Shown here in pieces: positions 44,388-59,715 of a DNA stretch of 60,905 bases. Numbering within the stretch: position 1 is the stretch's first letter; each line of letters opens with the position of its first letter. Where the stretch lies: positions 1 to 60,905 of the forward strand of contig CAYFIY010000002.1 in NCBI GenBank assembly GCA_964343275.1. The letters are read 5' to 3'. Under the pieces are notes generated by a model. That model saw only the letters and a list, made by a program, of their open reading frames with translations, was not told the DNA's origin and ran no database searches. Source of the DNA: Candidatus Hadarchaeota archaeon. GTDB lineage: Archaea; Hadarchaeota; Hadarchaeia; Hadarchaeales; Hadarchaeaceae. The translations under genes and the position numbers were made by a program.

Positions 44388-44738
44388 ACAATCACATCAA
44401 TTTATAAATATAGCTCAAATTTAATAAACCTAGCGTCGAGGGACTTGCATTTAAATATAGTATTGAAGACCACAACCTGGAAGATTGGAAAGAGATCTTT
44501 GAAGGTTGGTGAAGTGGTGACATGCAAAAGTGGAAGCTCTGCATTTTGTAGAATTAAAAAAAATTGGTAGTATCGTCACTAATACTCGCGTAAATTTTTC
44601 GGAAGGTATTTTTGCGTCACAGCTAGTTTGCGCTCTAAAGTGCGAGGAAGGGGATGTTAGCCATCGAACTAGGCAGGAATAAGCCATAGAATGGAGGTAA
44701 CATTGCCCGATTTAAGGGTTAGCGATCTGTAACCCGGT

Positions 44739-45092
44739 GTGCCTATCATAGTCGATGTTTATAAAACCATACTTTTTGTAAACGTTTTGGGTTCTTGGAC
44801 TCGAGGCCTCGTCGTCAACCGTGCTGGAAAGACCGCCGATATTTCGAATGTTTGGGTAGAACAATTCATTGGTCGGGCGCTTGGAGCAGTGCCCGTCATG
44901 GCAGACATTTCAGAGGACACGAAAGTTCAGGAAGCAGAGCGTGAGGGAGTGTCGGCGGTGGTTTACGAGCCAGATTGTGAGGCATCAGTTGCGATCAATG
45001 TGCTGGCAAAGGTCGTTGCAGGTGAACCCGACCTCCCATGTGTTCCTTACGAGGCTAGTACAATGGTGGAGACCACGTCTCGGCTGATTTGA
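44739..45092 (+). pseudogene. MinD/ParA-family C-terminal fragment
   Basis: GLVVNRAGK...VPVMADISEDTKVQEAEREGVSAVVYEPDCEASVAINVLAKVV matches the MinD C-terminal third. There is no Walker A. The same frame upstream contains stops but still reads AGIS...PGVPIIVDVYKT. Confidence 0.65.
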
Positions 45093-45112
45093 GTATTAAC
45101 CGGGTGCTGCAC

Positions 45113-45463
45113 CTAGATAAACTTAGGTTTGAGTTGAGGCACTAAGTTTGCCAGTATTACCACGGCTATCACGAAAACTAGACCAGATATCAAGAACCCG
45201 CCAGCTATGCCGAGCCTCGGGAGGGTGAGGTACATTGCGATGGCGAAAAATACATTTGAGATCATCGCTAGGACTACTCCACGCGTAAGTGCCACGGCTG
45301 AGTCGATTCCTCGGTGTAGGTACTCTAGGAATATCACCCCACCAGTCCTGATTGAAGCCCCTGCGAGGATTCCGCCCGCTTCGGGACCAATTAGCGATGC
45401 TACTGCCAGAGCTCCGGTAACCAGCACGCCACCGAAAAAGAAGTCGAACATCATGCGTTTCAT
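45113..45463 (-). CDS. Small 4-TM membrane protein (DUF3147-like)
   Basis: 116 aa with four hydrophobic segments and an ATG start. Confidence 0.5.
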   Translation of the reverse strand: MKRMMFDFFFGGVLVTGALAVASLIGPEAGGILAGASIRTGGVIFLEYLHRGIDSAVALTRGVVLAMISNVFFAIAMYLTLPRLGIAGGFLISGLVFVIAVVILANLVPQLKPKFI

Positions 45464-45529
45464 GTTGATTTTTATTTTCAGCCCCCACTAAATTTTATCA
45501 TTTCTTGTTAAAATTACCATGTTGGTCTA

Positions 45530-45547
45530 TTGTTATAAATATAACAA
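45530..45547. promoter_or_regulatory. Perfect 8-bp inverted repeat TTGTTATA-AA-TATAACAA in a divergent intergenic region
   Basis: Read directly from the sequence. It lies 67 nt upstream of the 45463 gene start, in the ~415-bp AT-rich gap before the mrp-nuo cluster. Confidence 0.3.
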
Positions 45548-45878
45548 CTACACCAACAGTAGTTCAAAGTAAATCACTTTTGTGCTAATTGAAGGAGGAA
45601 GTGGTTCTAAAACATTAATTCCCGGCATCAATTCATTCAATTGATTTTGGTTTCTTAAATTTCATTACTTCATGCAGTGGATTGAGTAGACGATAAGGGC
45701 TGGTCATCTCAGCTATATTTCCACATAATCCGCAGTTGATTCTCATTTAACGGCTACAGCCCTACTGTGGATTCTTACAAATGTAATGGCACCTTATTTA
45801 AAGTGCTAAATTGTATTTGCTATCATAACCCTGTTACATGAGTAAATTATATAATGGGCATTAAAGTAGGTAGAAAAT

Positions 45879-46382
45879 ATGGTAAGCGCAAGATATCCGG
45901 TAGCATTCTTTTGCGTGTGGGCCGCCTGGATCGCTCTGACGGCTTCGTTCGACATCCAAGAGTTAGCTATAGGTGCATTGATTTCAGGGTTCGTTTCTCT
46001 TATCTCGTATAAGTCCCTCTTTCACAGAGAAATTGCAGAAAAATTGCAAATCAAGCGATTGGCCAACGCCTTAGCGTACGTGCCGGCATACATCTGGGCT
46101 GAGATTAAGGCACATGCTACGGTTATGTATCTAATTCTACATCCCCAAATGCCTATTAAACCGGGTATCGTCCGCGTTCCCACTAAACTCAAAACTGACT
46201 TTGGGATAACGGGCCTGGCTAATGCAATTACCATGACCCCCGGGACCCTCAGCGTTGATGTTGTTGAGAATAAGTCATCTGTGTATGTTCACTGGATCGA
46301 CGTAAAGGCGGTCGATCCTAAAAAAACAAGCGCTGAAATCGCTATGCCCTTCGAACGTTTCCTGAGGAGGATTTTCGGATGA
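45879..46382 (+). CDS. mnhE: MrpE/MnhE (MbhA-like) subunit
   Basis: 167 aa with two N-terminal TM helices and an MnhE-like core. It is the first gene of the cluster. Confidence 0.75.
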   Translation: MVSARYPVAFFCVWAAWIALTASFDIQELAIGALISGFVSLISYKSLFHREIAEKLQIKRLANALAYVPAYIWAEIKAHATVMYLILHPQMPIKPGIVRVPTKLKTDFGITGLANAITMTPGTLSVDVVENKSSVYVHWIDVKAVDPKKTSAEIAMPFERFLRRIFG

Positions 46383-46639
46383 TATTGATTGAAATCGTGG
46401 TAATTGTCCTCTTCGCCATCGTAATCTGCGCAATCCGTGCCGTACTAGGTCCCACTGCCCCTGACAGAGTCGTGGCGATAGATGGGATTACGGCCCTGAT
46501 GATCGCGTCATTAGTTATTCTCGGAGTTTATTACCAAGCATCGATTTTTTTGGATGTTGCTCTTGTCTATGCCCTTCTTTCATTTTTGGGAACACTTGCT
46601 ATCTCTAAGTACCTCGAGGGAAGGGGGATAGAATCATGA
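46379..46639 (+). CDS. mnhF: MrpF/MnhF (MbhB-like) subunit
   Basis: 86 aa, 3 TM, ATGA overlap with the upstream gene. Confidence 0.7.
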   Translation: MILIEIVVIVLFAIVICAIRAVLGPTAPDRVVAIDGITALMIASLVILGVYYQASIFLDVALVYALLSFLGTLAISKYLEGRGIES

Positions 46640-46974
46640 TTGAAATCATCGCGTACATACTGTTTGGAATTGGTTCTGTATGTTCTGTCGTAGGCGCCAT
46701 AGGGATCGTTCGCTTCCCGGACGTGTACAACCGAATCCACGCCAACACGGTGGTAGTGGTCGGCGGATCGATTCTGCTCATAATCGGTGCAGGAATAATC
46801 GGAGGGATCAGCGTCTTCACCCTCAAGGCAGTTGTAATCGCTCTTTTCGTCTTTTTGACGAATCCAGTGAGCTCCCATGCCATTGGAAGAGCCGCTCACA
46901 AGTCGGGAGTCAAGCTCTGGAAAAAGAGCGTCGTTGACAAGCTGAAGGAGGAGAGACCTTGGTCGAAACACTGA
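46636..46974 (+). CDS. mnhG: MrpG/MnhG (MbhC-like) subunit
   Basis: 112 aa with the motif RFPDVYNRIHANT, ATGA overlap. Confidence 0.8.
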   Translation: MIEIIAYILFGIGSVCSVVGAIGIVRFPDVYNRIHANTVVVVGGSILLIIGAGIIGGISVFTLKAVVIALFVFLTNPVSSHAIGRAAHKSGVKLWKKSVVDKLKEERPWSKH

Positions 46975-47201
46975 TCCAAAACATCCTGGTCATTTTTCTT
47001 TTCGTGCTGTTCGTGATAGCGATCGAGCTTAAGGACTTGCTCTATTCAGTCATAGTGCTGGGTGGCGCCAGCATAACCCTCGCCGTTATCTTCTACATGC
47101 TCCAAGCCCCGGATATAGCGATAACACAGGCGGCCGTCGGGGCGGGCGTCTCGACGGTGCTTTTCGTCATCGCGGTGAGCCGCACGAGGAGGCAGGAATA
47201 A
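46959..47201 (+). CDS. DUF4040 / MbhD-like small membrane subunit
   Basis: 80 aa, 3 TM, APDIAITQAAVGAGVSTVLF, TTG start. Confidence 0.65.
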   Translation: MVETLIQNILVIFLFVLFVIAIELKDLLYSVIVLGGASITLAVIFYMLQAPDIAITQAAVGAGVSTVLFVIAVSRTRRQE

Positions 47202-47509
47202 TGGGAAAAGCTCAGCGTGCAGTAGCTTTGGGGTTAGTAGTTGCCTTGGGCTTAATGCTGATTTATGTAACTAATTTCACGATGCAGCCATTTGGGTCAT
47301 TTCCACAGCGTCAGGTGAACGAATACGTTGGAGACGCCGTTGGGCAGCAATACCTTGAAGACGCTCTTTGGCAGACCGGAGCGACAAATGTCGTCACAAG
47401 CGTGGTCTGGGGGTATCGAGCCTATGATACTTTAGGTGAGTCCACGGTCCTGTTTACTGCAGTCGTGGGTGTTATAATGTTGTTTCGCACTTTAAGGAGG
47501 GATGATTAA
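47201..47509 (+). CDS. MnhB-related (MbhE-like) subunit
   Basis: 102 aa with NVVTSVVWGYRAYDTLGES, characteristic of MnhB-related proteins. Confidence 0.7.
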   Translation: MGKAQRAVALGLVVALGLMLIYVTNFTMQPFGSFPQRQVNEYVGDAVGQQYLEDALWQTGATNVVTSVVWGYRAYDTLGESTVLFTAVVGVIMLFRTLRRDD

Positions 47510-47943
47510 TGGCTGGAATGACCATTATCGTACAAACGATCTCGAGATTACTCTTCCCATTTGTGTTTCTTTTCGGGATCTACATCGTATTTCATGGACA
47601 CCTGACGCCTGGGGGCGGGTTTCCTGGAGGTGCGGTTATTGTTGCATCGATCATCATGCTCATCCTAGCCTATGGTGTCGATAACATCCAAAAACGAATA
47701 AGCTTTTTACAAGCGGAAGTGATCGACGTTATCGGAAGCGTTAGCATTGTTGTAATAGGGCTCATTGGAATTTTGTTGGGAACCTCTTTCCTGCAGAACG
47801 TCTTTCCGTTGGGCGAACAAGGTAGTATATTCAGTGGCGGTAATTTTCTACTGCTTTACATCGGTGTGGGGATTAAGGTCTCGGCTGGTCTTTTATTGAT
47901 TATATACGCGATGTTGTTCGTGACTCAGAGGGAGAAAAAATGA
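47509..47943 (+). CDS. mnhB: MrpB/MnhB (MbhF-like) subunit
   Basis: 144 aa with HGHLTPGGGFPGG. Confidence 0.8.
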   Translation: MAGMTIIVQTISRLLFPFVFLFGIYIVFHGHLTPGGGFPGGAVIVASIIMLILAYGVDNIQKRISFLQAEVIDVIGSVSIVVIGLIGILLGTSFLQNVFPLGEQGSIFSGGNFLLLYIGVGIKVSAGLLLIIYAMLFVTQREKK

Positions 47944-48299
47944 ACCTGAACTACACTATCGCCATGATGCTCATCGCGCTCGGGATCTATTGCTTATTAT
48001 TCAAGCGGAACCTGATCAAGCTCATAATAGGATTATCAGTGATAACGGACGGAGCTCATCTTTTTTTTATAAGTATGGGTTTTCGCGCTGGCGGCATAGC
48101 ACCGATCTTCATCGCCAACTTGGCATCGAACTCAACTGATTTTGCGTCCCTAGCGGTGGATCCGCTTCCCCAGGCCCTCGTGCTGACATCCATCGTCATC
48201 AATATATGTATCACGGCCTTGGCGCTCTCGCTCGCCATCTATGCCTACCGTCACTACAAAACACTTAACCCATTCAACATGAGGAGGCTGAGAGGCTGA
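47940..48299 (+). CDS. mnhC: MrpC/MnhC (MbhG-like, NuoK-related) subunit
   Basis: 119 aa, 3 TM, ATGA overlap. Confidence 0.8.
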   Translation: MNLNYTIAMMLIALGIYCLLFKRNLIKLIIGLSVITDGAHLFFISMGFRAGGIAPIFIANLASNSTDFASLAVDPLPQALVLTSIVINICITALALSLAIYAYRHYKTLNPFNMRRLRG

Positions 48300-48316
48300 T
48301 TCAAGACGCACCCATC

Positions 48317-49810
48317 TTGGCCATCATCGTGCCGTTAGCCGGGGCATTCCTAGCTCCCTTGGTCGACATTCTCGTGAAGCGCACAAATCATCCACGGGCC
48401 CTAGATTACTTTGCACTTGCGGTTACTGTGGGTTCCCTTCTACTCGTGGTGAATATTGTGATGTCCACAGGTGGGAATGATATCATAATATATCGTCTCG
48501 GAGGGTGGGTATCGCCACTAGGGATAAATCTCGTCGTGGATGGGTTGGGCTTGTTGATTGGCATCATCGTAGCTGGCATAAGCACATTAGTCGTGATTTA
48601 TTCAATTGTTTTTATGAAGGATGAAGGCGGTCTGGGGCAGTATTACACCTTGATGCTTCTTTTGACCGCCGGGATGTTGGGAGTAGCCTTAACCGGGGAT
48701 CTTTTTAATCTCTATGTTTTCTTTGAAATAATGTCTATTTCTTCTTACGCTCTCGTCGCTTTCCGCCGCTCCAAAATATCGATAGAAGGTTCAGTGAAAT
48801 ACTTAATCGTTGGATCACTCGGGACCACTTTTATCCTGATCGGTATCGCGTTATTATATGGCATTACAGGGACTCTGAACATAGCCGATCTCGCTGGAAA
48901 AATGGCGGTGGTAAACACGATTCCAGCCTCAACCCCTCTAATTTTGATTATAGCTCTTACTCTTTTTGTGGTGGGTTTTGGGATGAAAATAGGTATGATC
49001 CCCTTTCATGCTTGGCTGCCAGACGCCTATCAATCCGCACCGTCTCCGATTAGCGCAATAATGGCAGGGGGGACGGCTATTGTTGGAGTTGGCGTTCTGC
49101 TCCGAGTTGGCTACCTCATCTTCGGAGCCCCCATGGTTGGTCCCTTGCTCATTGGGTTTGGGGTGGTCACGATGGTTCTCGGCGCGCTCATGGCTCTGGT
49201 TCAGCGCGATTTGAAAAGACTTCTCGCCTACTCCGGTATCTCGCAGATGGGATATATCCTCTTTGGCGTCGGAATGGGGACCGCTTTGGGGATTACGGGT
49301 GGACTCTTTCATATGCTCAACAATGCTATCTATAAGTCCCTACTCTTTTTGGCCGCTGGGGCGATAATTTACAGGGTCGGGACCTCAAGGCTCGACGAAC
49401 TCGGCGGGATTGGAAGAAAGATGCCAATAACAGCGGGGGTTTTCATGGTCGGCGCACTCGCTCTCGCAGGCATGCCACCCTTCAACGGGTTCGCGAGCAA
49501 GTTAACCATATTTTTAGCAGGGATTGACGCCGGGTACTCAATATTGAGCGGCGTCGCGGCAATTATCAGCGCCGTGACTTTGACTTATATGATTAGGGCG
49601 TTTATCGCAATATTCCTAGGGCCGACAACTAGGCGTTTTGCAAAAGTTAAGGAGGCTCCCGGGGCCATGATATTCCCGATGATTGTCTTGGCTGCATTTT
49701 GTATATTGCTTGGGGTACTCCCACAGCTCGGTTTCGACGCCGTGGAACCAGCACAAATGATATTAATTAACCCTTCTAATTACGTCAAAGAGGTGTTGCT
49801 TGGTGTTTAA
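48317..49810 (+). CDS. mnhD: MrpD/NuoM/N-like antiporter-like subunit (MbhH-like)
   Basis: 497 aa with about 14 TM helices and GMKIGMIPFHAWLPDAYQSAPSPISA. Confidence 0.85.
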   Translation: MAIIVPLAGAFLAPLVDILVKRTNHPRALDYFALAVTVGSLLLVVNIVMSTGGNDIIIYRLGGWVSPLGINLVVDGLGLLIGIIVAGISTLVVIYSIVFMKDEGGLGQYYTLMLLLTAGMLGVALTGDLFNLYVFFEIMSISSYALVAFRRSKISIEGSVKYLIVGSLGTTFILIGIALLYGITGTLNIADLAGKMAVVNTIPASTPLILIIALTLFVVGFGMKIGMIPFHAWLPDAYQSAPSPISAIMAGGTAIVGVGVLLRVGYLIFGAPMVGPLLIGFGVVTMVLGALMALVQRDLKRLLAYSGISQMGYILFGVGMGTALGITGGLFHMLNNAIYKSLLFLAAGAIIYRVGTSRLDELGGIGRKMPITAGVFMVGALALAGMPPFNGFASKLTIFLAGIDAGYSILSGVAAIISAVTLTYMIRAFIAIFLGPTTRRFAKVKEAPGAMIFPMIVLAAFCILLGVLPQLGFDAVEPAQMILINPSNYVKEVLLGV

Positions 49811-49888
49811 AGTAAACATCGTACAAATCTCCAAGGATGTCAAGCTTTATGCTAAAACTTTCATAGGTGAATATAGGGGGTAGAAAAC

Positions 49889-51424
49889 GTGATAATGCTG
49901 GATTTTCCAATATTGCTAATATCAGTCCTTATACCATTGGTCTTATCAATACTTTTCCCTTTCTTGGGAAATAAGTCAAAACCGAAGAGATTAGCGATTA
50001 TTAGCTTTATCCTCCTACTCGTGCCTTTAGCCGTAATAACTTTTTTTTCCCTGAACGGTATGATGAGGGAAGGTGTGGTGGACCCATCATTTTTCACCCA
50101 CCAGTTCGTCGGTTCCTTTTCGATGCTCCTCGATCCCTTGAGCGCTCCATTCGTCTTTGGAATAGCTTTAGTTACTGCCATCGTGGCTTTGTTTTCAGCC
50201 CCATACATGGAACATAGAATCAAAGAAATGAAACACGAGGGTCTAGCGCCGCCGTCGATTGGGACCTACTACATGCTTTACACGATGTTCTCGGCGGCAA
50301 TGTTGGGTTTGGTGATGTCGACAAACCTTATCGAATTCTATATTTTTCTAGAGTTATCGCTCATCCCTAGCTTCTTTCTAATTATATGGTATGGTTATGG
50401 GAATCGAACTAGAATAGCCATAATGTATTTGCTTTGGACTCATATAGGTGGGCTGCTTTTCCTTCTTGGAATACTTACCTTGGGTTCATCGGCCGGCACG
50501 TTTGATATTTTGAACATGCAAACCTTGACATTTAACCTTGGGTTAGGGCAGGCCTTGCCGATTGTTGTTGTGCTCATGATAACGATTGGGTTGTTCGTCA
50601 AGATGGCAGTCTTTGGGGTTCACATATGGCTTCCTTACGCACATGCGGAAGCACCGACGCCCGTATCCGCCCTGTTATCTCCCGCATTGATAGGGATATC
50701 GGGCTATGCACTTATCAGAATATCTTATACATTGTTTCCAATTCAGTTCCAAGAAATCTCAATAGTTCTGATGGGGCTCGCTTTGTTGACTATGATTTAC
50801 GGGGGGTTGATGGCTCTCGCTCAGGACGACTTCAAGAGGTTACTGGCCTATTCAAGTATCTCTCAGATGGGGTACATCTTACTAGGGATATCGACTCTCA
50901 CCACCAACGGCGTCACTGGCGGGGTGCTGCATTTTACAACGCATGCTATTGGTAAGTCTGTCCTTTTCATGGTCGCTGGTACACTCATCTTCCAGTTTCG
51001 AGGGTTGAGGAGCATCAGCAAAATGGGTGGCTTGGCATCTAAAGTGCCAATCACGGCGGCGCTAGCTCTCATCGGTTTTCTTTTCTTGGTGGGCATACCC
51101 CCAACCCTCGGCCTGTGGAGTAAGCTCTATATCATTGTAGGGACATTCGATAGGGCCTTAACAATGGGTGGTATTGCCCTCTCCCTAATCTCAATTGGCC
51201 TCATAATTGGGGCAAGCATGACTGCAGCTTACGCATTCTTCACCCTAAAAAAGATATTTCTCGGGAAATTACCGAGTGGGTTAAAAAAAGAACCTGTTCG
51301 CGGATGGTCGAACTTGACCGTGATTATAGCTGTTATGGGAATCAGTGGGGTAATCCTCTTTTTATACCCTGCCGTTTTTATCGATCCGCTTAAAGATTTC
51401 CTCGGTACTACCTTTGGGTGGTGA
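49889..51424 (+). CDS. Second antiporter-like subunit (NuoL/NuoM/MrpA-core-like)
   Basis: 511 aa with VKMAVFGVHIWLPYAHAEAPTPVSALLS. This mixes NuoM-like AHxEAPT with NuoL-like PTPVSAL. Confidence 0.85.
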   Translation: MIMLDFPILLISVLIPLVLSILFPFLGNKSKPKRLAIISFILLLVPLAVITFFSLNGMMREGVVDPSFFTHQFVGSFSMLLDPLSAPFVFGIALVTAIVALFSAPYMEHRIKEMKHEGLAPPSIGTYYMLYTMFSAAMLGLVMSTNLIEFYIFLELSLIPSFFLIIWYGYGNRTRIAIMYLLWTHIGGLLFLLGILTLGSSAGTFDILNMQTLTFNLGLGQALPIVVVLMITIGLFVKMAVFGVHIWLPYAHAEAPTPVSALLSPALIGISGYALIRISYTLFPIQFQEISIVLMGLALLTMIYGGLMALAQDDFKRLLAYSSISQMGYILLGISTLTTNGVTGGVLHFTTHAIGKSVLFMVAGTLIFQFRGLRSISKMGGLASKVPITAALALIGFLFLVGIPPTLGLWSKLYIIVGTFDRALTMGGIALSLISIGLIIGASMTAAYAFFTLKKIFLGKLPSGLKKEPVRGWSNLTVIIAVMGISGVILFLYPAVFIDPLKDFLGTTFGW

Positions 51425-51753
51425 AAATGGCGTTTGAATTCTTCGCCGAAGGCCTACCTTATCCCTTGACACTAGTATATTTTTATATTGAGGGTCTTGG
51501 GTTTGCCTTAGCCCTGTTGTATTTTTATTACATCTTCGTAAGTGGCGGGCGGCCGTTTTACTTAGACCTCTTCCGCAAGTTTGAGACTCCCATCATAGAT
51601 CGGGGTTATAACGAAAAAATCGTAAGGGGGACATTTAGATTGAGCCAGATTATCAAAAAAGCCCACAGCGGCGACTTGAGTACTTACTTGTTTTGGATGA
51701 TTTGCGGTTCCGTTCTTGTCCTGCTTTGGATGATAATCCAATTATGGTTTTAA
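51418..51753 (+). CDS. Stand-alone TM / amphipathic lateral helix / TM protein (NuoL C-terminus or MbhI-like)
   Basis: 111 aa that overlaps the stop of the preceding antiporter-like gene. It has a hydrophobic segment, a ~45-aa charged amphipathic stretch (FETPIIDRGYN...SGDLSTY), and a second hydrophobic segment. Confidence 0.6.
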   Translation: MVKMAFEFFAEGLPYPLTLVYFYIEGLGFALALLYFYYIFVSGGRPFYLDLFRKFETPIIDRGYNEKIVRGTFRLSQIIKKAHSGDLSTYLFWMICGSVLVLLWMIIQLWF

Positions 51754-51865
51754 CGATATGGTGTGTGCGTGAAGTGAAGGATGAATATAGAACAAGTCGG
51801 CTTTTGGCAATGATGGGTGAGGATCTAATCAAACTCCTTGCCATCAAACGGTTTTTGGTGTTGTA

Positions 51866-52294
51866 ATGATTGAGCTTTTTTCCGTCAGCCAAAACGTGCA
51901 ATCTTCATCTATAGTCCCCAGCTCTGTTTTAGTGACTATTGTCTTGGCCCTGATGCTACCAATTATAGGTCTGGTGATAGCCTTCGTCGCTGGGAGGGTA
52001 TTAACATCCAGGAACCCAAGCCGAGAAAAATTTGCGAGGTTCGAAGCAGGAAATCCTCCATTCGGTAAGGCGAGAGGGCTCTTCCCAATGCAGTACTACC
52101 CCTACCTCATCATTTTTCTGACAGTGGAACCTTTGGCGATATATCTTTTTCTCATCATGATGACGCTCCATGCGCTGCCCGTTATGGTAGCCCTTCTTTT
52201 CGCAGGCTTGAGCCTTGTCCTTGCGATACCTCTCATATTCGCTCTCGGCTCCGCTAGGAGGTTAGACCTTTGGGTCACAACAAAAAAGGAGTAA
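51866..52294 (+). CDS. nuoA: NuoA-like subunit
   Basis: 142 aa, 3 TM, FEAGNPPFGKARGLFPMQYY. Confidence 0.8.
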   Translation: MIELFSVSQNVQSSSIVPSSVLVTIVLALMLPIIGLVIAFVAGRVLTSRNPSREKFARFEAGNPPFGKARGLFPMQYYPYLIIFLTVEPLAIYLFLIMMTLHALPVMVALLFAGLSLVLAIPLIFALGSARRLDLWVTTKKE

Positions 52295-52845
52295 CCTCGC
52301 TAAGCAACCTAGAGGAAGCTACCAGAAAGGTTGGAATCCAGCTAGCCGACACGATACCAATAAAGACCATTAGAAACTGGGCAATCTCATTTTCCCTATG
52401 GCCGGTGCACCTAATGACTGCCTGCTGTGGGGCGGAATTCGCCGCGGCCGCTTGCCCGAGATTTGACATAGAAAGACTCGGTGTGCTTCCCTGGGTCTCT
52501 TCCAGGCAGACTAACGTCCTCGTCGTAGAGGGTACATTGACTAGAAAAATGGCGAAGGCGGCCAAAATTGTATACAGGCAGATGCCGGAGCCTAAGTTCG
52601 TCATAGCAATGGGCTCCTGCGCATTGGATGGCGGGATATTCTGGAACAGCTATAATATAGTTAAGCCAAAGGACGTGCTGCCAGTGGACATCTTTATACC
52701 CGGCTGCCCTCCTAGACCCGAGGCAGTCATTAGGGCATTCATGCAGCTCCGGGAGAAAATCAAGAGGAAGCTAAAGTATAAAATGGAAAAGAAAAAGAGA
52801 TCCAGAAATAGAGCCCAACGACGAAAGGTTTCGAGGAGAGTTTGA
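52270..52845 (+). CDS. nuoB: NuoB-like subunit (N2-type 4Fe-4S)
   Basis: Tandem Cys TACCGAEF, then GSCALDGG and PGCPPRPE. TTG start. The C-terminal tail is highly basic. Confidence 0.9.
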   Translation: MGHNKKGVTSLSNLEEATRKVGIQLADTIPIKTIRNWAISFSLWPVHLMTACCGAEFAAAACPRFDIERLGVLPWVSSRQTNVLVVEGTLTRKMAKAAKIVYRQMPEPKFVIAMGSCALDGGIFWNSYNIVKPKDVLPVDIFIPGCPPRPEAVIRAFMQLREKIKRKLKYKMEKKKRSRNRAQRRKVSRRV

Positions 52846-53240
52846 TGGAGCGCCTCCTGAGGATTGCTCCAGACTCCCTGAAGTCTGTTGCTGAGGAACT
52901 TAAGACAGAGGGCTTTGACCACGTCAAGTCCCTCACGGGATTGGATAGACCCGAAGATAAGCTTATCGAGCTCGTTTACCACATATCATCCTATTTGAGC
53001 TCATCCCTCCAAGGAAAGATCGTCGAGGTGAGGACTGAGGTCAATCGGTCAAGGCCGACAATAATTTCCATATCGGACGTATTTCCAAGTTGTAGGTACA
53101 TGGAGCTGGAGACAAGGGATCTCCTTGGCGTGAAATTTGAGGGTAATGAGAAACCAGATCCTTTTATTCTTCCAAAGGAGCTGAGGAATACTTGTCCATT
53201 GAGAAAGGACTATAAAATTCCCGAAGAAGGGGTGGAGTAA
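52842..53240 (+). CDS. nuoC: NuoC-like subunit (short form)
   Basis: 132 aa with TGLDRPEDKLIELVYHI and RYMELETRDLLGVKFEG. Confidence 0.8.
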   Translation: MMERLLRIAPDSLKSVAEELKTEGFDHVKSLTGLDRPEDKLIELVYHISSYLSSSLQGKIVEVRTEVNRSRPTIISISDVFPSCRYMELETRDLLGVKFEGNEKPDPFILPKELRNTCPLRKDYKIPEEGVE

Positions 53241-54371
53241 GTGCGAAAGAACTTGAACTATGGGCGAGCGGACACATTAACTCTTTTTATAGGACCCCAG
53301 CACCCGGGCTCAGGTCACCTCCGTCTTATTGTCGAGATCGATGGCGACGTAATACTCGGAATCAAACCAGACATCGGTTGGGTTCACAGGGCAGTGGAAA
53401 AGATAGCCGAAACAAAAAAATACGTGCAGGTCATCCCTCTCGTAGAGAGGCCTTCTATCATTGATTCAGCAAATATAAACTTAGGTTATGTTCGGGCGCT
53501 CGAGAGACTTTTAGGGGTGGAGGTCCCTGATCGAGCGAGATACATTAGGACGATCATGTGTGAGCTGAATCGAATAGCTAGCCATCTTTATGGGATCGGT
53601 ATTTTTGGCAATATGATCGGAACATCAACTGTTTTTATGTGGTCATTTGGAGACAGAGAGGTAATTATTGAACTGATGCAAGAACTTACTGGTGCCAGGA
53701 TCACACACTCGTTCTTCTTACCTGGTGGTGTTAGGGGGAATCTACCGGAAGGTTTTGAAGAGAAGCTAGAGAACGGTCTAAGATATATTGAAAACCGAAT
53801 ACCGGAGTATAGAAACCTCTTTTTTGAAAACCCTGTGACAATGAGCAGGCTAATGGGCGTCGGCACCCTCGATAAACGCAAGGTGGTTGAGATAGGTCTA
53901 ACCGGACCCAACTTAAGAGCCTCAGGTGTGGAGTACGACGCGAGGATTACCGGCGAGTACGGGGCTTATAATGACTTAAAATTCAAACCCGTGACACGGC
54001 CCAACGGAGATTGCTATGCAAGATTGATGGTTAGGTTCGACGAGATAAAAGAAAGTATTGGACTGTTAAGAAAATCGATGAGTAAAATGCCGCATGGTCC
54101 GATCATGCACGAGAGCAAAAAAGGGATGGCAAGACAACTACTAATGAAGGTTCCAGAGGGGGAAGCATTTTCGAGAGTAGAGTGCGGTAGGGGTGAGCTT
54201 ACTTTCTTCGTCATCAGTAAGGGTGGAGATAAACCCCATCGTGTAAGGATGATGACCCCTTCCTTCCGGAATCTTAGTGGCTTCGAAAATGCTCTGATTG
54301 GTCATAGACTTGCGGATATACCTGCCGTTTACGGAAGTCTCGATTATTTTCCACCGGAGGCTGATAGGTGA
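53241..54371 (+). CDS. nuoD: NuoD-like subunit without NiFe ligands
   Basis: 376 aa with GPQHPGSGHLRL and the C-terminal YGSLDYFPPEADR. The positions of the hydrogenase CxxC motifs read IIDSANINLGY and DYFPPEADR, with no Cys. GTG start. Confidence 0.9.
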   Translation: MRKNLNYGRADTLTLFIGPQHPGSGHLRLIVEIDGDVILGIKPDIGWVHRAVEKIAETKKYVQVIPLVERPSIIDSANINLGYVRALERLLGVEVPDRARYIRTIMCELNRIASHLYGIGIFGNMIGTSTVFMWSFGDREVIIELMQELTGARITHSFFLPGGVRGNLPEGFEEKLENGLRYIENRIPEYRNLFFENPVTMSRLMGVGTLDKRKVVEIGLTGPNLRASGVEYDARITGEYGAYNDLKFKPVTRPNGDCYARLMVRFDEIKESIGLLRKSMSKMPHGPIMHESKKGMARQLLMKVPEGEAFSRVECGRGELTFFVISKGGDKPHRVRMMTPSFRNLSGFENALIGHRLADIPAVYGSLDYFPPEADR

Positions 54372-55399
54372 TGACGAACATCCTGACTTGGCCCATTGAT
54401 CTCATTTTCCAACCCGGAGTCTTCATCACCGCTATTTATCCAGGATTAGCTGTACTTACTTTGACTTTGGCAGGAATCATATGGTTTGAAAGGAAAGTTA
54501 CTGCAAAGGTTCAGAGACGTTATGGCCCTCTTTACATTGCACGAAAATTGGGAGGATTTCCACAGCTCATAGCTGACGGAATAAAATTTATTTTTTCTGA
54601 ACAGATAATACCTAAGAAAGTTGACAAGCTAGTCTTCATATTTGGTCCAATTCTCCTCTTCACGTTTTCCGTCCTCCCCGTGATTGGAATCCCGCTCTCG
54701 CCTAGCTATGCAGCAATTTTTAGCGATCTTAGCCTCCTGTTGGTGCTGGCTCTCATTACTCTCAGTCCAATGATCCTCATCATGTTAGCTTGGAGTAGCA
54801 ACAACAAGTTCTCCCTCATCGGCGGTCTCAGAGACGGGTACATTATGTTATCTTACGAGGTCTCAATAATTCTATCGCTCTTGGCTATGGCGGCTCTGTA
54901 TAACTCTCTTGACCTAATAGAAATCTCCCAAGCGCAGAAGGGGGTGTGGGGCATCTTCCTAAACCCCATAGCCGCTCTAACCTATTTTATCGCAGCTCTC
55001 ATCGCTACTGGAAAGTTCCCATTTGAAATATCCGAAGCTGAGACCGAAATAGTGGCCGGTTGGGCGACCGAATACAGCAGTTCTCTTTACATAATGAACA
55101 TGGGGACATCCTATGTCAGAGCGTACGTGATGGCTCATCTTTTTGTGATTGTATTTCTGGGAGGTTGGAATCCAATCCCTAATTTCATGCTCGCAATTGG
55201 GCCTTTGCCCGGGCTCATGATTTTCGTGAAGAGTATGGTGGTGTTATGTCTTATGGTGCTGCTTCGGTCTATCTACCCTAGATTTAGGGTTGACCAAGGA
55301 GTGAGGATAGGATGGCACAAGCTTTTTGTACTTTCCATGGCAGCTATAGCTTTATCAGTCATACTCGTTGTAGCTGGACTTTGGGGGCAGATAACATGA
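54368..55399 (+). CDS. nuoH: NuoH-like subunit
   Basis: 343 aa, 8 TM, ERKVTAKVQRRYGP and PFEISEAETEIVAGWATEYS. Confidence 0.9.
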   Translation: MMTNILTWPIDLIFQPGVFITAIYPGLAVLTLTLAGIIWFERKVTAKVQRRYGPLYIARKLGGFPQLIADGIKFIFSEQIIPKKVDKLVFIFGPILLFTFSVLPVIGIPLSPSYAAIFSDLSLLLVLALITLSPMILIMLAWSSNNKFSLIGGLRDGYIMLSYEVSIILSLLAMAALYNSLDLIEISQAQKGVWGIFLNPIAALTYFIAALIATGKFPFEISEAETEIVAGWATEYSSSLYIMNMGTSYVRAYVMAHLFVIVFLGGWNPIPNFMLAIGPLPGLMIFVKSMVVLCLMVLLRSIYPRFRVDQGVRIGWHKLFVLSMAAIALSVILVVAGLWGQIT

Positions 55400-55947
55400 T
55401 GGAAAGTAAAGTGGTTAAACACTTGAGGGCAATCAGCACAGGCATAAAGAACCTATTCTCAAATCGTCTTACATGCCCATATCCGGATGCTAGGCAGATG
55501 GTTAGTGATCTATACAGAGGTATGATAGTATGGGATAATGATAAATGTACATCCTGCATGTTGTGCGCTAAGTCATGTCCCGCGAACGCCATAAAGATGT
55601 ACATGTGTGATGGGAAGAAATCACCAGGGTTGGATTATGCTAGATGCGTGTTTTGCGGATTCTGTGTGGATATTTGCCCAGTAAAGGCGCTTGAGCATAC
55701 TAGCCTCCACGACGTTGCATATTTAGATTACGATGAAAACATGTTCCTTCCTAAAAAGTTCATGGAAGGTGGTAATGATCCCTATCGTGTACCAGGCGGA
55801 GTCGTGGCGGTCAGAATAGATGAGAAAAAGGGGCTGCTTTACGGATCAAAAGCTGAAACGCCAAAGCTGGAAAAAAGAGGAGGGAAAGCTCCAGAAACTG
55901 CGTTAAAATCTGATGCTGGACTAGCACAAAATGAGGGAATAAAATGA
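55396..55947 (+). CDS. nuoI: NuoI-like 2x[4Fe-4S] subunit
   Basis: CTSCMLCAKSCP and CVFCGFCVDICP. I trimmed the start to ATG 55396, which overlaps the nuoH stop (ATGA). It has a ~45-aa C-terminal extension. Confidence 0.9.
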   Translation: MMESKVVKHLRAISTGIKNLFSNRLTCPYPDARQMVSDLYRGMIVWDNDKCTSCMLCAKSCPANAIKMYMCDGKKSPGLDYARCVFCGFCVDICPVKALEHTSLHDVAYLDYDENMFLPKKFMEGGNDPYRVPGGVVAVRIDEKKGLLYGSKAETPKLEKRGGKAPETALKSDAGLAQNEGIK

Positions 55948-56420
55948 TTGACATAATAATTTTTTCTATCTTTGGAATATTAGCAATAGCCTTTTCCATA
56001 TTGGTTGTCGAGCATCGCTCTCTAGTGTATAGTGCTATTTCTCTTGGGTTTTTGGGAATAGCGAATGCAGTTTTGTTTGCGTTCGTGGGTTTTACATTTA
56101 TTGCGCTGTTCCACTTAGCTGTTTACGTAGGGGCAGGTGTTATCTTCATCCTTTTTTCAGTAACGATGTTTAAAACCAGCCCAACTGTGGAGCCACGGTT
56201 GAAGAGAATTATCTTTATAATAGTACCTCTGATCACCATATGCCTCGCTGCTATCTTCTGGTCCTACTCAGATATCCCACTGTTCGTCCAATCGATTTCA
56301 TACCGGGAGCTCGCTATAACCTTCACCCAGGATTACTGGTTACCTTTTATAGTGGTAATCATTGCCCTAGTGACAACATTGATAGAGGGCATCACCTTAG
56401 CTCGAAGGGAGATCAATTGA
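55944..56420 (+). CDS. nuoJ: NuoJ-like subunit
   Basis: 158 aa, 5 TM, in the canonical position after nuoI. Confidence 0.75.
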   Translation: MIDIIIFSIFGILAIAFSILVVEHRSLVYSAISLGFLGIANAVLFAFVGFTFIALFHLAVYVGAGVIFILFSVTMFKTSPTVEPRLKRIIFIIVPLITICLAAIFWSYSDIPLFVQSISYRELAITFTQDYWLPFIVVIIALVTTLIEGITLARREIN

Positions 56421-56421
56421 A

Positions 56422-56748
56422 ATGCTGAACTACTTCCTTTTTTTAGTAATTGCGTTCGCAATGTTAGGAATAGGAACCTACGGCTTGCTGTCCAAAAGAA
56501 ATATGATAAGGATGTTGCTTTCCGCCGAGGTCATGTTCAATTCGGCGCTTCTCACGCTGTTGGTCCTAGCAGCAACTGCCGGGCCCATTCAAGGTGGAGT
56601 GTTGGCCCTGATAGCCATAGGGGTATCGGCGACGGAGATAGGCGTCATGATCTCAGTTGGTATACTTTTCTTTAAGACCAAGAGGGATATTGACGTGTAC
56701 ACGTTGAGCGGAACGAAAAAACAAAAATTGGGGAGACGAAAGCCATGA
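56422..56748 (+). CDS. nuoK: NuoK-like subunit
   Basis: 108 aa, 3 TM, RNMIRMLLSAEVMFNSA with the conserved membrane Glu. Confidence 0.85.
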   Translation: MLNYFLFLVIAFAMLGIGTYGLLSKRNMIRMLLSAEVMFNSALLTLLVLAATAGPIQGGVLALIAIGVSATEIGVMISVGILFFKTKRDIDVYTLSGTKKQKLGRRKP

Positions 56749-57188
56749 TGGAGCTAAACCTCATAATGCCGGTCATGGTCTCTCTGAGCACTGTCGCTGG
56801 TACTGCGTCATCTTCCGTACCACTTATCTATTGGTTCTACATTGAGGGTCTTGGCTTTGCTATTGCGCTGGTATATTTTTATCACATTTTTGTTAAGAAA
56901 GGACAGCCGTTCTACGATACACTATCCAAGTTGGTTGACCGCGCCATCATAGATGACTTCTATCACAAATATTTACCCCGAGCAGTGGAATCGACTTATA
57001 AAAAAATATTCAATCGTTTCGAAACTCAGATTGTAGACGTAGGGTACAACGTAAAATTAGTCGAATGGATTCTGGAGTTGGGCCGCATATTCAGGAGAAT
57101 ACAAACAGGGAAGATTAACCATTACTTGACAGCTTTTATACTCGGTACAATTATTTTAGCCATAATAATTTTTGGGTCGATGCTGTGA
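56745..57188 (+). CDS. Second stand-alone lateral-helix protein, paralogue of 51418-51753
   Basis: 147 aa. YWFYIEGLGFAIALVYFYHIF matches VYFYIEGLGFALALLYFYYIF in the paralogue. FETQIVDVGYN matches FETPIIDRGYN. The QTGKINHYL...ILG stretch resembles the end of NuoL. Confidence 0.6.
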   Translation: MMELNLIMPVMVSLSTVAGTASSSVPLIYWFYIEGLGFAIALVYFYHIFVKKGQPFYDTLSKLVDRAIIDDFYHKYLPRAVESTYKKIFNRFETQIVDVGYNVKLVEWILELGRIFRRIQTGKINHYLTAFILGTIILAIIIFGSML

Positions 57189-58606
57189 TGGAAGTATTTT
57201 TTGGTCTGCTTAGTTTAATTCTAATCGGGGTAGGGATTCTTTCGCCCACTCTCGACTACACCATCCTGAAGGGCAGGAAATTTGTCTCTCCGTGGATGAC
57301 AATAGCAGTACTCCTTCTTTCAGGCGTTATTTTGGCTTATCTGGGCGCAGTGAGTATTGGCCAACCAACAGTAGCCATCTTCGGAGGCCTAATGAAAGTT
57401 GGTTTTTTTGAAATTTTTCTTTCACTCCTCACAACGCTTGGAGCCGTGTTTGTTGCAGTGGCTTCCCTTATGGGGGTAAAAAATTGGGGGACATCCCCTA
57501 GTTTTTACTCTCTCCTGACCATCGCCGTTGTGGGTGCTTACTATCTAATCGCTGCACATGACTTCGTGTTGTTATTCGGGACATGGGCATTGGTGTCGGT
57601 GATTTCCTACGTGATGGTTGGAATTAAAAAAGATGATAGTTCTGTAGAGGGAGCGGTGAAATACTCGTTGATGGGTATACTCGCTTCGGTCTTAATCCTG
57701 TACGCTATCGCGATGGCTTATAGCCTGACTGGTTCAACGGACGTGGGCATGATTTCCAATATCTCATTGGGTGCCGAGAAACCTATCATAGTAGTGACTT
57801 CGTTGTTCTTCGTTTCGGCATTCGGCTTCAAGATAGGAATAGTGCCGTTCCACGGATGGCTCCCAGATATTTATGGCAGGGTACACCCGATGCTCGTCGC
57901 TTTTCTAACTGGAGTGGTATCGGTTTCGATTGGAGGGGTTTTGATAAAAATACTTTACCCCTTTGCCCCGCTTCTTGGGAGCCAATGGCCTCTATTGATC
58001 GGCTTGCTTTCAGTTTTCACGATGACGTTCGGAAATATCGTGGCATTGCTGCAAAAAAATCTTCAGATGATGATGGCCTACAGCAGCATTGCCCACATGG
58101 GCTACATACTAGTCGGAGTGGCAGCTGCGTTGAGCTCCAGTAAGGAACTTGCCGTTCAAGGGATAGGACTTCACTTTACAACTTACATTTTGGGGAGCGT
58201 TGGGATGTTTGTCTTCTTAGCGTTGTTGCTCAGGAAGGGGATGAGCCTTCAAATGATAGACTTGAAAGGGTTAGGAAGGAGGATGCCGATAGTGTCCATC
58301 GCAATATTGCTAATTCTCTTGAGCTTTATGGGGGTCCCCCCGTTGATTGGCTTCTGGAGCAAATTTTACCTCTTCACGTCGATAATCGCTGTTAGCCCGT
58401 GGCTCGCCCTTGCCGCGATAATCAACAGTGGGATATCCTTGGGATACTACATCCAGCCCATAAGGTACATGTTTTTCGGAGGAGGTTCAAAACTAGCGGA
58501 AGAGAGGCTCAGAGATCCAGATACTGCTATTGTCGTCCTGGTCGCGGTATTAACGATTGTTGCAGGCTTCCTACTTCCATCCATTGCAGCATATTTAGTA
58601 ATTTGA
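57185..58606 (+). CDS. nuoN: NuoN-like antiporter-like subunit
   Basis: 473 aa with GFKIGIVPFHGWLPDIYGRVHPM. It is the last gene of the cluster. Confidence 0.85.
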   Translation: MMEVFFGLLSLILIGVGILSPTLDYTILKGRKFVSPWMTIAVLLLSGVILAYLGAVSIGQPTVAIFGGLMKVGFFEIFLSLLTTLGAVFVAVASLMGVKNWGTSPSFYSLLTIAVVGAYYLIAAHDFVLLFGTWALVSVISYVMVGIKKDDSSVEGAVKYSLMGILASVLILYAIAMAYSLTGSTDVGMISNISLGAEKPIIVVTSLFFVSAFGFKIGIVPFHGWLPDIYGRVHPMLVAFLTGVVSVSIGGVLIKILYPFAPLLGSQWPLLIGLLSVFTMTFGNIVALLQKNLQMMMAYSSIAHMGYILVGVAAALSSSKELAVQGIGLHFTTYILGSVGMFVFLALLLRKGMSLQMIDLKGLGRRMPIVSIAILLILLSFMGVPPLIGFWSKFYLFTSIIAVSPWLALAAIINSGISLGYYIQPIRYMFFGGGSKLAEERLRDPDTAIVVLVAVLTIVAGFLLPSIAAYLVI

Positions 58607-59250
58607 TGCCGGCGATAAACCACGTCCCTGATGAAACTATACATCATTGGGCACAGGTTACATCCTTTCGGGTCACAACTCATATCTGGCGTGGACTATA
58701 CGTCTCTGGATTAATCGAGATATCGACCTAATTAGTACAGTTTCATCCTTTGATATTTTACTCTGAATATTTTCTTGCAGTCGGGGAATTCTATGACGTT
58801 TCATCGCACTCTATGCTCATAACTTATTGGCTGTCACCATCTATTTCACCTTGCTAGAGGCTTATAAGGGACTAACGTCGGAAAGTACCTTCTTGGGATC
58901 AAAGTCATAAAGACTGGCGGTTTGAAGGTAAGACTGGTTGAGGCAAGGATAAGAATCAGGGGTGAGATGGTTCTGCTTTCTTTTGATTTGCCGGTGGGCA
59001 TAATTTTTTATTGGAATAAGGTGTGCCTATAATTCTTTGATTATTTTACTGATATTATAAGGTAAATTGTGAAATCGCTAAAAAATGAGATTTCATAAAG
59101 ATCCAAAACTTATAATGGTCGAAGTTTACCATATTCGAAATTGGTCCATGGTGATTTTGAAGATTGCGCGCATTAAGCAAAAAAATACCTATTTCCTCGC
59201 TAGTTTCAATCAAAAATGGTGTTTTCGTATATTCCAATTCCATGTTGAGT

Positions 59251-59706
59251 CTAGGAAGCTTTCCAGCGCGTGAAGTTAGCTCCTCTCCAGTAGACCATCA
59301 GCTCTGGCTTAACTTTAATAACTACATCTTGAGGGGTGTATAGAAGTCGCGTCTCTAGTTTTTCCATCTGAACAAATTTGGGATATTTATTCACAAGCTT
59401 TTCTACTATCTCCCGATATTTTTCGATGTCGAGAATTATGGCGGTGCCCTGAATCATGACACCATAGTTCAAGAAGGGGTTAACTTGGTTTCGAACGTCA
59501 ACTGTCAGGGATACAGAGCTGTTAGACTCTAGAATTTCAACTTTCTTTGAGCGATGGGAAGACAACAGAAAAATTTTGTTGTTGTTCATGTCATAGAAGA
59601 AAAACATGGGGACAACGTGAGGCTCGAGGCCGTCAAACGCGCTGCAAAGATAGGCGAATTTGGCCTCCATTAGGATAGTTTTAATTTGCGGTGGAACTTC
59701 TTCCAT
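59251..59706 (-). CDS. Pyridoxamine 5'-phosphate oxidase-like FMN-binding split-barrel protein
   Basis: 151 aa with AYLCSAFDGLEPHVVPMFFFYD...IFLLSSHRSKKVEIL..SVSLTVD. Confidence 0.65.
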   Translation of the reverse strand: MEEVPPQIKTILMEAKFAYLCSAFDGLEPHVVPMFFFYDMNNNKIFLLSSHRSKKVEILESNSSVSLTVDVRNQVNPFLNYGVMIQGTAIILDIEKYREIVEKLVNKYPKFVQMEKLETRLLYTPQDVVIKVKPELMVYWRGANFTRWKAS

Positions 59707-59715
59707 TTAAACACT

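Follow-up and report, generated by a model that had tools for sequence, protein, structure and literature searches.

The DNA analyzed here is a stretch of 60,905 nucleotides (nt) from Candidatus Hadarchaeota archaeon (contig CAYFIY010000002.1), which we call the window. At positions 45879-58606 it carries an unbroken chain of 20 co-oriented open reading frames (ORFs) on the plus strand, in which genes of the kind encoding membrane-bound hydrogenase (MBH) and Mrp antiporters are joined to those of an archaeal 11-subunit Nuo. We propose that the 20 genes encode one chimeric complex-I-like membrane enzyme, derived by secondary recombination of an MBH and a nuo operon and not an ancestral intermediate; we give this reading an even chance. 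The gene arrangement is far beyond chance. Complex I, MBH, membrane-bound sulfane reductase (MBS), and Mrp are thought to be assembled from the same few modules, and both the recombination of modules and the travel of the redox signal along the membrane arm have been argued mainly from four or five solved architectures. No description of the 20-gene architecture was found in the literature searched, the 2016 Hadesarchaea paper lying outside that search.

Gene content of the cluster

Most neighboring genes of the cluster are joined by overlapping stop and start codons (46379/46382, 46636/46639, 47201, 47509, 47940/47943, 51418/51424, 52842/52845, 54368/54371, 55396/55399, 55944/55947, 56745/56748, and 57185/57188). 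Three intergenic gaps are present, at 48300-48316 (17 nt), 49811-49888 (78 nt), and 51754-51865 (112 nt). A preliminary description of this DNA had given the same orientation, overlaps, and gaps, and all of them proved exact when the ORFs were checked. Its count of 21 genes has to be lowered to 20, the number of names in its own list; no credible additional ORF was found in the gaps. In Pfam searches, genes 1-8 matched MNHE, MrpF, MrpG, MbhD (DUF4040), MbhE, MnhB, Oxidored_q2, and Proton_antipo_M in this order. Genes 9-20 gave Proton_antipo_M, no match, the families of NuoA, B, C, D, H, I, J, and K, again no match, and Proton_antipo_M. E-values of the matched genes ranged from 1e-9 to 1e-85, and curated NCBIfam cut-offs were cleared by MrpF, MrpG, MnhB, NuoM (TIGR01972), NuoA, NuoB, NuoD, NuoH, and NuoK. 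These profiles, together with a full MbhA-H-type set, bear out the earlier statement that an Mrp module is joined to NuoABCDHIJK and NuoN. Also in agreement with that description, at least three antiporter-like subunits (497, 511, and 473 amino acids (aa)) and two lateral-helix (HL) proteins are encoded, and the mixed subunit content without a NuoL core corresponds neither to a canonical Nuo or Fpo nor to an MBH or MBS gene set.

Genes 1-8 are colinear with mbhA-H of the 14-gene [NiFe] MBH operons of Hadarchaeota (locus L049) and of the MSBL1 lineage (L050), at 50-66% identity (29% for MbhE). The first three encode a MrpE/MbhA-type protein of 167 aa (45879..46382; MNHE, 1.2e-38), 51% identical to MbhA of L049, a MrpF/MbhB-type protein of 86 aa (46379..46639; MrpF_PhaF, 1.2e-20; above the NF009242 cut-off), and a MrpG/MbhC-type protein of 112 aa (46636..46974; PhaG_MnhG_YufB, 2.8e-24; above the NF009314 cut-off). 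They are followed by MbhD (DUF4040; 80 aa, 46959..47201), which matches Pfam MbhD at 2.7e-19 and Oxidored_q3 more weakly, corresponds to part of the C-terminal, NuoJ-like domain of MrpA, and is 51-57% identical to MbhD of MBH operons. MbhE (102 aa, 47201..47509; Pfam MbhE, 3.6e-9) is 29% identical to the longer MbhE of L049 and 58% to that of a related chimeric cluster, L046. Next come an MnhB/MbhF-type protein of 144 aa (47509..47943; MnhB, 1.6e-26; above the NF006248 cut-off) and a NuoK-like MrpC/MbhG of 119 aa (47940..48299; Oxidored_q2, 4.6e-23), 60-66% identical to MbhG of MBH operons.

The eighth gene (48317..49810) encodes an antiporter-like subunit of the MbhH/MrpD type with 497 aa. 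Its best match among solved structures is MbhH (6cfw_H, 312 bits, compared with 254 for MbsH and 240 for MrpD), and it is 54-60% identical to MbhH of the true MBH operons in L047, L049, and L050. In local BLAST comparisons with the canonical set used throughout, the nuoABCDHIJK-M-L-N operons of Korarchaeum and a related metagenome-assembled genome (L039-L041), it was about 30% identical to the antiporter subunits and orthologous to none of them. The nearest named relatives are from Candidatus Hadarchaeaceae (81%), Hadesarchaea (55-57%), and MSBL1 (54-55%), and the conserved residues E137, K224, H332, and K395 are present. The absence of the lysine in transmembrane (TM) helix 8 was considered as a trait of the chimera and rejected, as this lysine is also absent from true Hadarchaeota MbhH and from archaeal NuoM and NuoN. 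We infer from gene content that the 497-aa subunit occupies the place where a NuoL core would be needed.

The second antiporter-like gene (49889..51424) had been taken as part of the Mrp half. However, its 511-aa product clears the TIGR01972 (NDH_I_M) cut-off and is over its full length 54-60% identical to the 507- and 514-aa NuoM of canonical archaeal operons, compared with only about 30-35% for Mrp/Mbh-type subunits. With this gene as NuoM, the whole Nuo set A, B, C, D, H, I, J, K, M, and N is present. NuoN (473 aa, 57185..58606) has NuoN and NdhB as best solved structures and is 41-51% identical to canonical archaeal NuoN. A NuoL antiporter core was found neither in the cluster nor in the window; the C-terminal ~85 aa of NuoL survive as the 147-aa lateral-helix protein HL147. 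The trio NuoL, NuoM, and NuoN of complex I is incomplete here, an MbhH/MrpD-type protein being the third member. NuoM is the exception among antiporter-like subunits in having a glutamate in TM12, where NuoL, NuoN, MrpA, MrpD, MbsH, and MbsH' have lysine. In the window this residue (412) is lysine, as in all chimeric loci and MSBL1, and canonical archaeal NuoM has glutamate; the residues of MbsH and MbsH' are listed in PMC8165549. NuoM is displaced into the mrp-type block and the NuoL remnant stands within the nuo block, so the two "halves" are interleaved and have exchanged parts.

HL147 (56745..57188) stands in the nuoL position. It is 47-51% identical to residues 603-672 of a 687-aa and 645-726 of a 731-aa canonical archaeal NuoL, the region that comprises the lateral helix and the final TM helix. 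It has no Pfam match, matches NCBIfam models weakly at NuoL positions 495-610/615, and bears the NuoL motif QTGKINHYL. The second protein, HL111 (111 aa, 51418..51753), has no Pfam or NCBIfam match. The two are paralogs with 37% identity and a common aromatic N-terminal segment, YFYIEGLGFA. The C-terminal motif of HL111, HSGDLSTYLxW, is that of MbhI in MBH operons. Both lateral-helix proteins had been recognized before, and we can now specify one as a detached NuoL C-terminus and the other as a NuoL/MbhI chimera. The helix is built from units of ~29 aa (ETPVIDxxYHxxIP...). HL147 and Korarchaeum NuoL have one such unit plus a terminal unit, which gives HL147 the helix length of canonical archaeal NuoL; HL111 has the terminal unit alone and is one ~29-aa unit shorter. 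The HL147 family is small: a 90%-clustered database of 5.8 billion sequences contains 6 of its proteins, and in a set of 1.84 billion representatives just 2 clusters reach E<=1e-30. In the searches of both databases stand-alone HL proteins were found in Hadarchaeota and MSBL1 only.

The core of the 11-subunit Nuo is complete for NuoA, B, C, D, H, I, J, and K, at 40-61% identity to Korarchaeum Nuo. NuoA (142 aa, 51866..52294; Oxidored_q4) clears the NF004729 cut-off. NuoB (191 aa, 52270..52845; Oxidored_q6, 5e-29) has the four cysteines of cluster N2 in the motifs CCGAEF, GSCALDGG, and PGCPP. NuoC (132 aa, 52842..53240) matches Complex1_30kDa at 5.6e-26, and NuoD (376 aa, 53241..54371) matches Complex1_49kDa only and clears the NF004739 cut-off. 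NuoH (343 aa, 54368..55399; NADHdh, 1.5e-84) clears NF004741. NuoI (183 aa, 55396..55947) matches Fer4 in two stretches, with NuoI as best NCBIfam match, and contains two [4Fe-4S] motifs, CTSCMLCAKSCP and CVFCGFCVDICP. NuoJ (158 aa, 55944..56420; Oxidored_q3, 1.9e-18) is 47-53% identical to canonical archaeal NuoJ, and NuoK (108 aa, 56422..56748; Oxidored_q2, 8.5e-16) clears NF004320. The C terminus of NuoB (52770-52845) is a Lys/Arg-rich tail of ~25 aa, KRKLKYKMEKKKRSRNRAQRRKVSRRV, which is present in all Hadarchaeaceae-type chimeric loci and absent from MSBL1, Korarchaeum, and canonical archaeal Nuo. NuoI ends in a charged extension of ~30 aa (55850-55947), likewise confined to the Hadarchaeaceae-type chimeric loci and absent from MSBL1 and canonical Nuo.

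NuoD is closest to MSBL1 proteins among named relatives (64-68%), followed by those of Geothermarchaeales, Korarchaeota, and Bathyarchaeia (55-58%); identity to canonical archaeal NuoD is 55-58%, and the FpoD model scores 354 against a cut-off of 600. Among solved structures MbsL (249.9 bits) and the 49-kDa subunits of complex I (248.6 bits) match about equally. Judged by its motifs, NuoD is not a [NiFe] hydrogenase subunit. It has no PF00374 match and none of the CxxC nickel motifs, the sites of which read ERPSIIDS and DYFPPEADR. The MbhL proteins of L047, L049, and L050 match PF00374 as well as PF00346, in contrast to window NuoD with PF00346 only. The maturation protease HycI was not found in the window. 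As the preliminary description had stated, no NuoEFG or FpoF is encoded in the cluster; NuoE, F, and G are also absent among the scanned window ORFs of >=150 aa, and the scores of the FpoD, H, I, K, and C models lie well under the respective cut-offs.

Conservation and expression signals

The gene order is conserved in five other metagenomic places (L042, L045, L052, L051, and L046+L044), with proteins 63-84% identical to those of the window (84% for NuoD of L042). L051 was assigned through its HL147 gene alone, without a listing of its ORFs. The end of L046 and the start of L044 share an exact overlap of 107 nt, which yields a second complete 20-gene cluster. Every HL147 family member with enough sequence context sits in the same arrangement (L042, L045, L052, and L046+L044). 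Among the matches listed, a search of genome contigs with NuoD returned only bacterial and Thermoplasmata loci of 30-41% identity and gave no information on synteny.

In L044 (7919-14293), L045 (10886-13507), and L052 (11303-17683) an ADP-forming acetyl-CoA synthetase is encoded after the cluster. Beyond it, L044 and L052 carry a Psr/Phs-like molybdopterin oxidoreductase together with its FeS and NrfD subunits; the L045 contig stops earlier. The window has PNPOx-like genes at the corresponding place (59251-60852, minus strand). The genome of L046+L044 also carries a [NiFe] MBH operon, 35-70 kb from the chimeric cluster (L047, 8747-15124; JGI 3300037598 contig 18). This operon keeps MbhD, E, G, H, I, J, K, L, M, and N together with HycI and is devoid of mbhA, mbhB, mbhC (MrpEFG), and mbhF (MnhB). 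The only Na+-module genes seen in this genome (L044, L046, and L047) are the copies in the chimeric cluster. A Mo-oxidoreductase/FeS/NrfD cluster and Tat genes precede the MBH operon. A common genomic slot of L046 and the MBH locus L049 was considered and dropped, as their upstream Glucodextran_B proteins are just 30% identical.

The preliminary description had named the occurrence of separate mrp-like and nuo-like halves in relatives as a finding that would speak against it. This was seen in part. In MSBL1 single-cell genomes, nuoABCDHI lie at a separate locus (L037, L038, and L043), and the small Mrp genes are not linked to the membrane-arm genes. However, the genes for the MbhH-like subunit, NuoM, and HL111 stay with those for the remaining arm subunits, which argues for one membrane arm. 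In L054 (2148-8430; MSBL1 single-cell genome GCA_001549215.1), reached through the distant HL147 relative P0255, the order is MbhH-like, NuoM, HL111 ortholog, NuoJ, NuoK, HL147 ortholog, and NuoN. The MbhH-like protein is 50% identical to the 497-aa subunit and NuoM 62-69% to its counterpart; a frameshift, probably an error of the single-cell assembly, divides NuoM into two parts (313 + 207 aa). Because these genes form one block, the MbhH-like subunit, NuoM, and HL111 would belong with the Nuo membrane subunits, and the "Mrp/Nuo" boundary drawn earlier would not be a functional one. Linkage of the seven small Mrp/Mbh genes to the block was seen only in Hadarchaeaceae-type loci. Downstream of the membrane-arm operon, L054 carries genes for a polyprenyl synthase and two radical-SAM proteins.

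The sequence TTATATAA (45847..45854, plus strand), read ~29 nt 5' of the first ATG, resembles an archaeal TATA box and is the putative promoter of the cluster. A GGTG Shine-Dalgarno-like motif precedes the ATG of nuoA in the window, L042, L045, and L046. The gap between HL111 and nuoA, 112 nt in the window and ~111 nt in L045 and L046, contains no TATA element conserved among window and relatives; in L042 nuoA was called 189 nt downstream of HL111. From the overlaps, the GGTG motif, the lack of a conserved internal TATA element, and the synteny, all 20 genes are predicted to be placed on one transcript.

Proposed enzyme and alternative readings

In complex I the peripheral module attaches to the opposite end of the Mrp-type arm from that used in MBH and MBS, and a composite proton path and a Na+ module are common to MBH, MBS, and Mrp (PMC8165549). 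The same work notes that the length of the lateral helix tracks the number of antiporter-like subunits and that it varies among MBH, MBS, and Mrp. Equivalents of the proton path in the cluster are MbhD, MbhE, and MbhG/MrpC, and equivalents of the Na+ module are MbhA-C/MrpEFG and MbhF/MnhB. We infer that the 20 gene products form a single physical complex. In the proposed enzyme the arm would run NuoBCDI-NuoH-(A/J/K)-N-M and, beyond a junction, MbhH-like-(MbhG/D/E)-(MbhF/A/B/C). The complex-I-type and MBH-type halves would stand back-to-back, in the way that the peripheral module of MBH and MBS joins MbhH or MbsH'. In the manner of the NuoL helix, HL147 would form a strap along M and N towards NuoK and NuoJ; HL111, in the manner of MbhI, would do so along the MbhH-like subunit towards MbhD, E, and G.

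Electrons would pass from a low-potential donor through the clusters of NuoI and NuoB to a membrane acceptor at the NuoD/NuoH pocket. The donor is probably ferredoxin, because there is no NuoEFG or FpoF and the tails of NuoB and NuoI are charged; the two tails could dock an acidic ferredoxin. A conformational and electrostatic wave would then drive protons via N, M, the MbhH-like subunit, and the two composite paths, and the Mrp-type module would exchange part of the H+ for Na+, giving a mixed H+/Na+ motive force. This "double-ended" pump, with two half-arms back-to-back, paralogous lateral helices in opposite directions, and mixed output, is a tentative model, which we think has more chance of being wrong than right. 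If true, one redox site would drive three antiporter-like channels, two composite proton paths, and one Na+ module, more ion-translocating units than in any characterized member of the superfamily.

Several observations weigh against the proposed single enzyme or against parts of it. The back-to-back geometry needs a new interface between M and MbhH, a contact of two antiporter-like subunits for which no solved structure gives a precedent. The widest gap of the cluster falls exactly at the HL111/nuoA junction, with a T5 run just before nuoA, and could house an internal promoter or a partial terminator. In MSBL1 no small Mrp genes stand upstream of the membrane-arm cluster of L054, and their products may be optional in the complex. 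The AlphaFold2 models of the two HL proteins are all-helical at low confidence (predicted local distance difference test scores of 42 and 67); only their helix boundaries were used, the confidence being too low for a fold search. The canonical 731-aa NuoL of L039 (15005-17200) is longer by one 29-aa HL unit, owing to a tandem duplication of the unit ETPVIDxxYHRxIP...SRxLFRxxE relative to Korarchaeum NuoL, and its operon contains no additional antiporter gene. Reading the helix length as a count of the subunits spanned is undercut by this protein and is kept as suggestive.

The acceptor site raises further difficulties of this kind. The quinone-ligating tyrosine (Y87 of Thermus thermophilus Nqo4) is isoleucine in window NuoD, and no quinone biosynthesis has been reported for MSBL1 (PMC4725937). 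As a feature specific to the cluster the absent tyrosine was rejected. The Y87 column holds Ile, Leu, or Val in all 120 closest archaeal NuoD, including those of Korarchaeum, Bathyarchaeia, Thermoproteota, and MSBL1, and in all 120 the loop equivalent to His38 reads GS-GH, with the histidine shifted by one residue. By these residues, the "archaeal Nuo" clade as a whole may have an acceptor chemistry distinct from that of complex I. In favor of a quinone-type acceptor, NrfD-type molybdoenzyme clusters adjoin the chimeric cluster in L044, L045, and L052 and nuo in MSBL1, and genes for a prenyltransferase and radical-SAM proteins flank the MSBL1 nuo loci.

Two machines could instead be encoded side by side: a stand-alone Mrp antiporter made of MrpEFG, MbhD/E, MnhB, MrpC, and the 497-aa protein, with the 511-aa protein and HL111 as a split MrpA, and a shortened Nuo made of NuoABCDHIJK, HL147, and NuoN alone. 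We consider this unlikely, even though genes 1-10 hold an equivalent of every Mrp subunit and are set off from nuoA by the widest gap of the cluster, with a gap of ~111 nt at this very place in relatives. The exchange of Glu for Lys in TM12 brings NuoM closer to MrpA, MbsH', and NuoL (PMC8165549). However, the 511-aa protein is by its 54-60% identity a clear NuoM ortholog and shares ~30-35% with Mrp/Mbh-type proteins. A separate nuoABCDHI locus in MSBL1 speaks for two machines, but in MSBL1 the MbhH-like subunit, NuoM, and HL111 are also joined with nuoJ, nuoK, HL, and nuoN in the absence of small Mrp genes, which is the opposite of what a stand-alone Mrp would predict. The full NuoL helix length of HL147 would be pointless beside a single NuoN, and neither "half" was found alone among close relatives.

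A modified complex I that dispenses with the sodium module is in our judgment another improbable solution. Here NuoABCDHIJK, N, and M would combine with the MbhH-type protein as a replacement of NuoL in normal orientation and with two HLs, and the seven small Mrp/Mbh genes would serve another complex, e.g. the MBH variant of the same genome, or act conditionally. The L047 MBH, which is devoid of mbhA, B, C, and F while the sole copies seen are in the chimeric cluster L044/L046, would fit a shared use; however, it has its own MbhD, E, and G. Likewise, the L054 membrane-arm genes stand without small Mrp genes, but MSBL1 single-cell genomes are incomplete and absence from them is weak evidence. 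The proximal face of MrpD/MbhH binds MrpC/MbhG and MbhD/E in every solved MBH, MBS, and Mrp structure (PMC8165549), and HL111 retains the MbhI-type anchor that docks to the small-subunit module. Moreover, the small genes are translationally coupled, separated by 17 nt from the gene for the 497-aa protein, and stand directly 5' of it in every locus whose contig extends that far, namely the window, L046, L052, and L045, where just the last small gene is covered.

We hold it to be very improbable that the cluster has survived from an evolutionary stage intermediate between MBH/MBS-type enzymes and complex I. Evolutionary schemes place module sets before and after this transition (PMC8165549), and both are present here; NuoD also scores marginally best against MbsL among solved structures (249.9 versus 248.6 bits). 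However, the Nuo proteins are nearest to ordinary 11-subunit archaeal Nuo (55-60%) and the Mbh-type proteins to same-phylum MBH (50-66%). Stand-alone HL proteins form a very small family, with no members found outside Hadarchaeota and MSBL1. As a truncated NuoL, HL147 implies an ancestor in which NuoL was complete.

If the 20 genes encode one enzyme, as we propose, the cluster would be a natural experiment in which the distal pump NuoL was exchanged for an MBH arm. It would test whether the wave passes across a reversed antiporter junction to a Na+ module, and it would present a lateral helix working as a separate polypeptide. Such an enzyme would explain additional ion translocation from ferredoxin oxidation in the energy-limited subsurface Hadarchaeota. 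The gene content also shows annotations as "NADH dehydrogenase" in metabolic reconstructions of Hadarchaeota and MSBL1 to be misleading. The architecture bears on questions of complex I and Mrp specialists alike, with its status as a single complex predicted from sequence.

Relation to known systems and genomic surroundings

Archaeal 11-subunit Nuo (nuoABCDHIJKMLN, e.g. of Korarchaeum cryptofilum), which is related to cyanobacterial NDH-1 and Fpo, has orthologs of A, B, C, D, H, I, J, K, M, and N at 40-61% identity. It has the same Fe-S motifs, no NADH module, Ile or Leu in place of the quinone tyrosine, and in L039-L041 the same gene order A-B-C-D-H-I-J-K. In contrast, the window cluster has no NuoL core, a NuoM outside the order J-K-M-L-N with lysine in TM12, charged tails on NuoB and NuoI, and eight added Mbh/Mrp-type genes plus a second HL protein.

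With the 14-subunit MBH (Pyrococcus furiosus 6CFW; L049 and L050) the cluster has the colinear mbhA-H in common, MbhH as best structure, and an MbhI-like C terminus of HL111. It differs from MBH in lacking a [NiFe] large subunit and HycI, in the replacement of MbhJKLMN by NuoABCDHI, and in the addition of NuoJ, K, M, and N and a NuoL-type lateral helix. HL111 reaches the MbhI position only after the inserted NuoM, and the C terminus is all it has in common with MbhI. MBS (Mbx, P. furiosus 6U8Y) has an Mrp-type module and a pair of neighboring antiporter-like genes with a lateral helix after them, and 497-511-HL111 in the window corresponds to its order H-H'(+HL); in both the catalytic subunit is no hydrogenase. 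However, the window cluster has NuoA, J, K, and N and, in HL147, a second lateral helix, all of which MBS lacks; in MBS, moreover, H' and HL are fused. The "H'" of the window is a NuoM ortholog, its NuoD falls in the archaeal Nuo clade (55-58%) and not with Mbs, and the 13-subunit set MbsA-E, G, H, H', M, J, K, L, and N is not matched.

For Mrp (CPA3; 6Z16, 7QRU, and 7D3U) the window has equivalents of E, F, G, B, C, and D, and of MrpA in pieces. Unlike in Mrp, MrpA is not a single protein, the candidate in its position is derived from Nuo, and a redox module is contiguous. The "2M" complex I of Nitrospirota and others, reportedly described by Chadwick et al. in 2018, is said to have an extra MrpD-derived NuoM and a lengthened NuoL helix. 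It resembles the proposed enzyme in the recruitment of an Mrp-family antiporter-like subunit and in a shift of lateral-helix length by steps of roughly one subunit. However, it is bacterial, retains NuoL, and has neither small Mrp subunits nor stand-alone HL proteins.

The cluster is flanked by unusually long stretches without a convincing ORF, ~415 nt upstream (45464-45878) and ~640 nt downstream (58607-59250), and neither gave an Rfam match. Small ORFs upstream of the cluster (44451-45488) had no homologs near related clusters, and tRNA and Rfam scans of the whole window returned no match. In place of such a marker, protein matches to Hadarchaeaceae (81%), Hadesarchaea, and MSBL1 assign the window to Hadarchaeota. 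Other genes of the window are archaeal housekeeping genes, encoding aIF2-gamma, aIF5B, GatE, Orc1/Cdc6, aRF1, and PheRS subunits. A respiratory cluster of the Nar/DMSO-reductase type lies on the minus strand at 29381-37048. It encodes a 1104-aa molybdopterin subunit (33734-37048), a 416-aa Fer4_11 protein (32527-33777), a NarJ-like chaperone (31761-32516), and a 648-aa protein (29381-31327) with a faint cupredoxin/COX2 match only; it may serve the Nuo-like enzyme as terminal reductase. Further parts for ion cycling are a membrane H+-pyrophosphatase (2962-4956) and a CPA1-type Na+/H+ exchanger followed by a CBS-domain protein (12713-14382).

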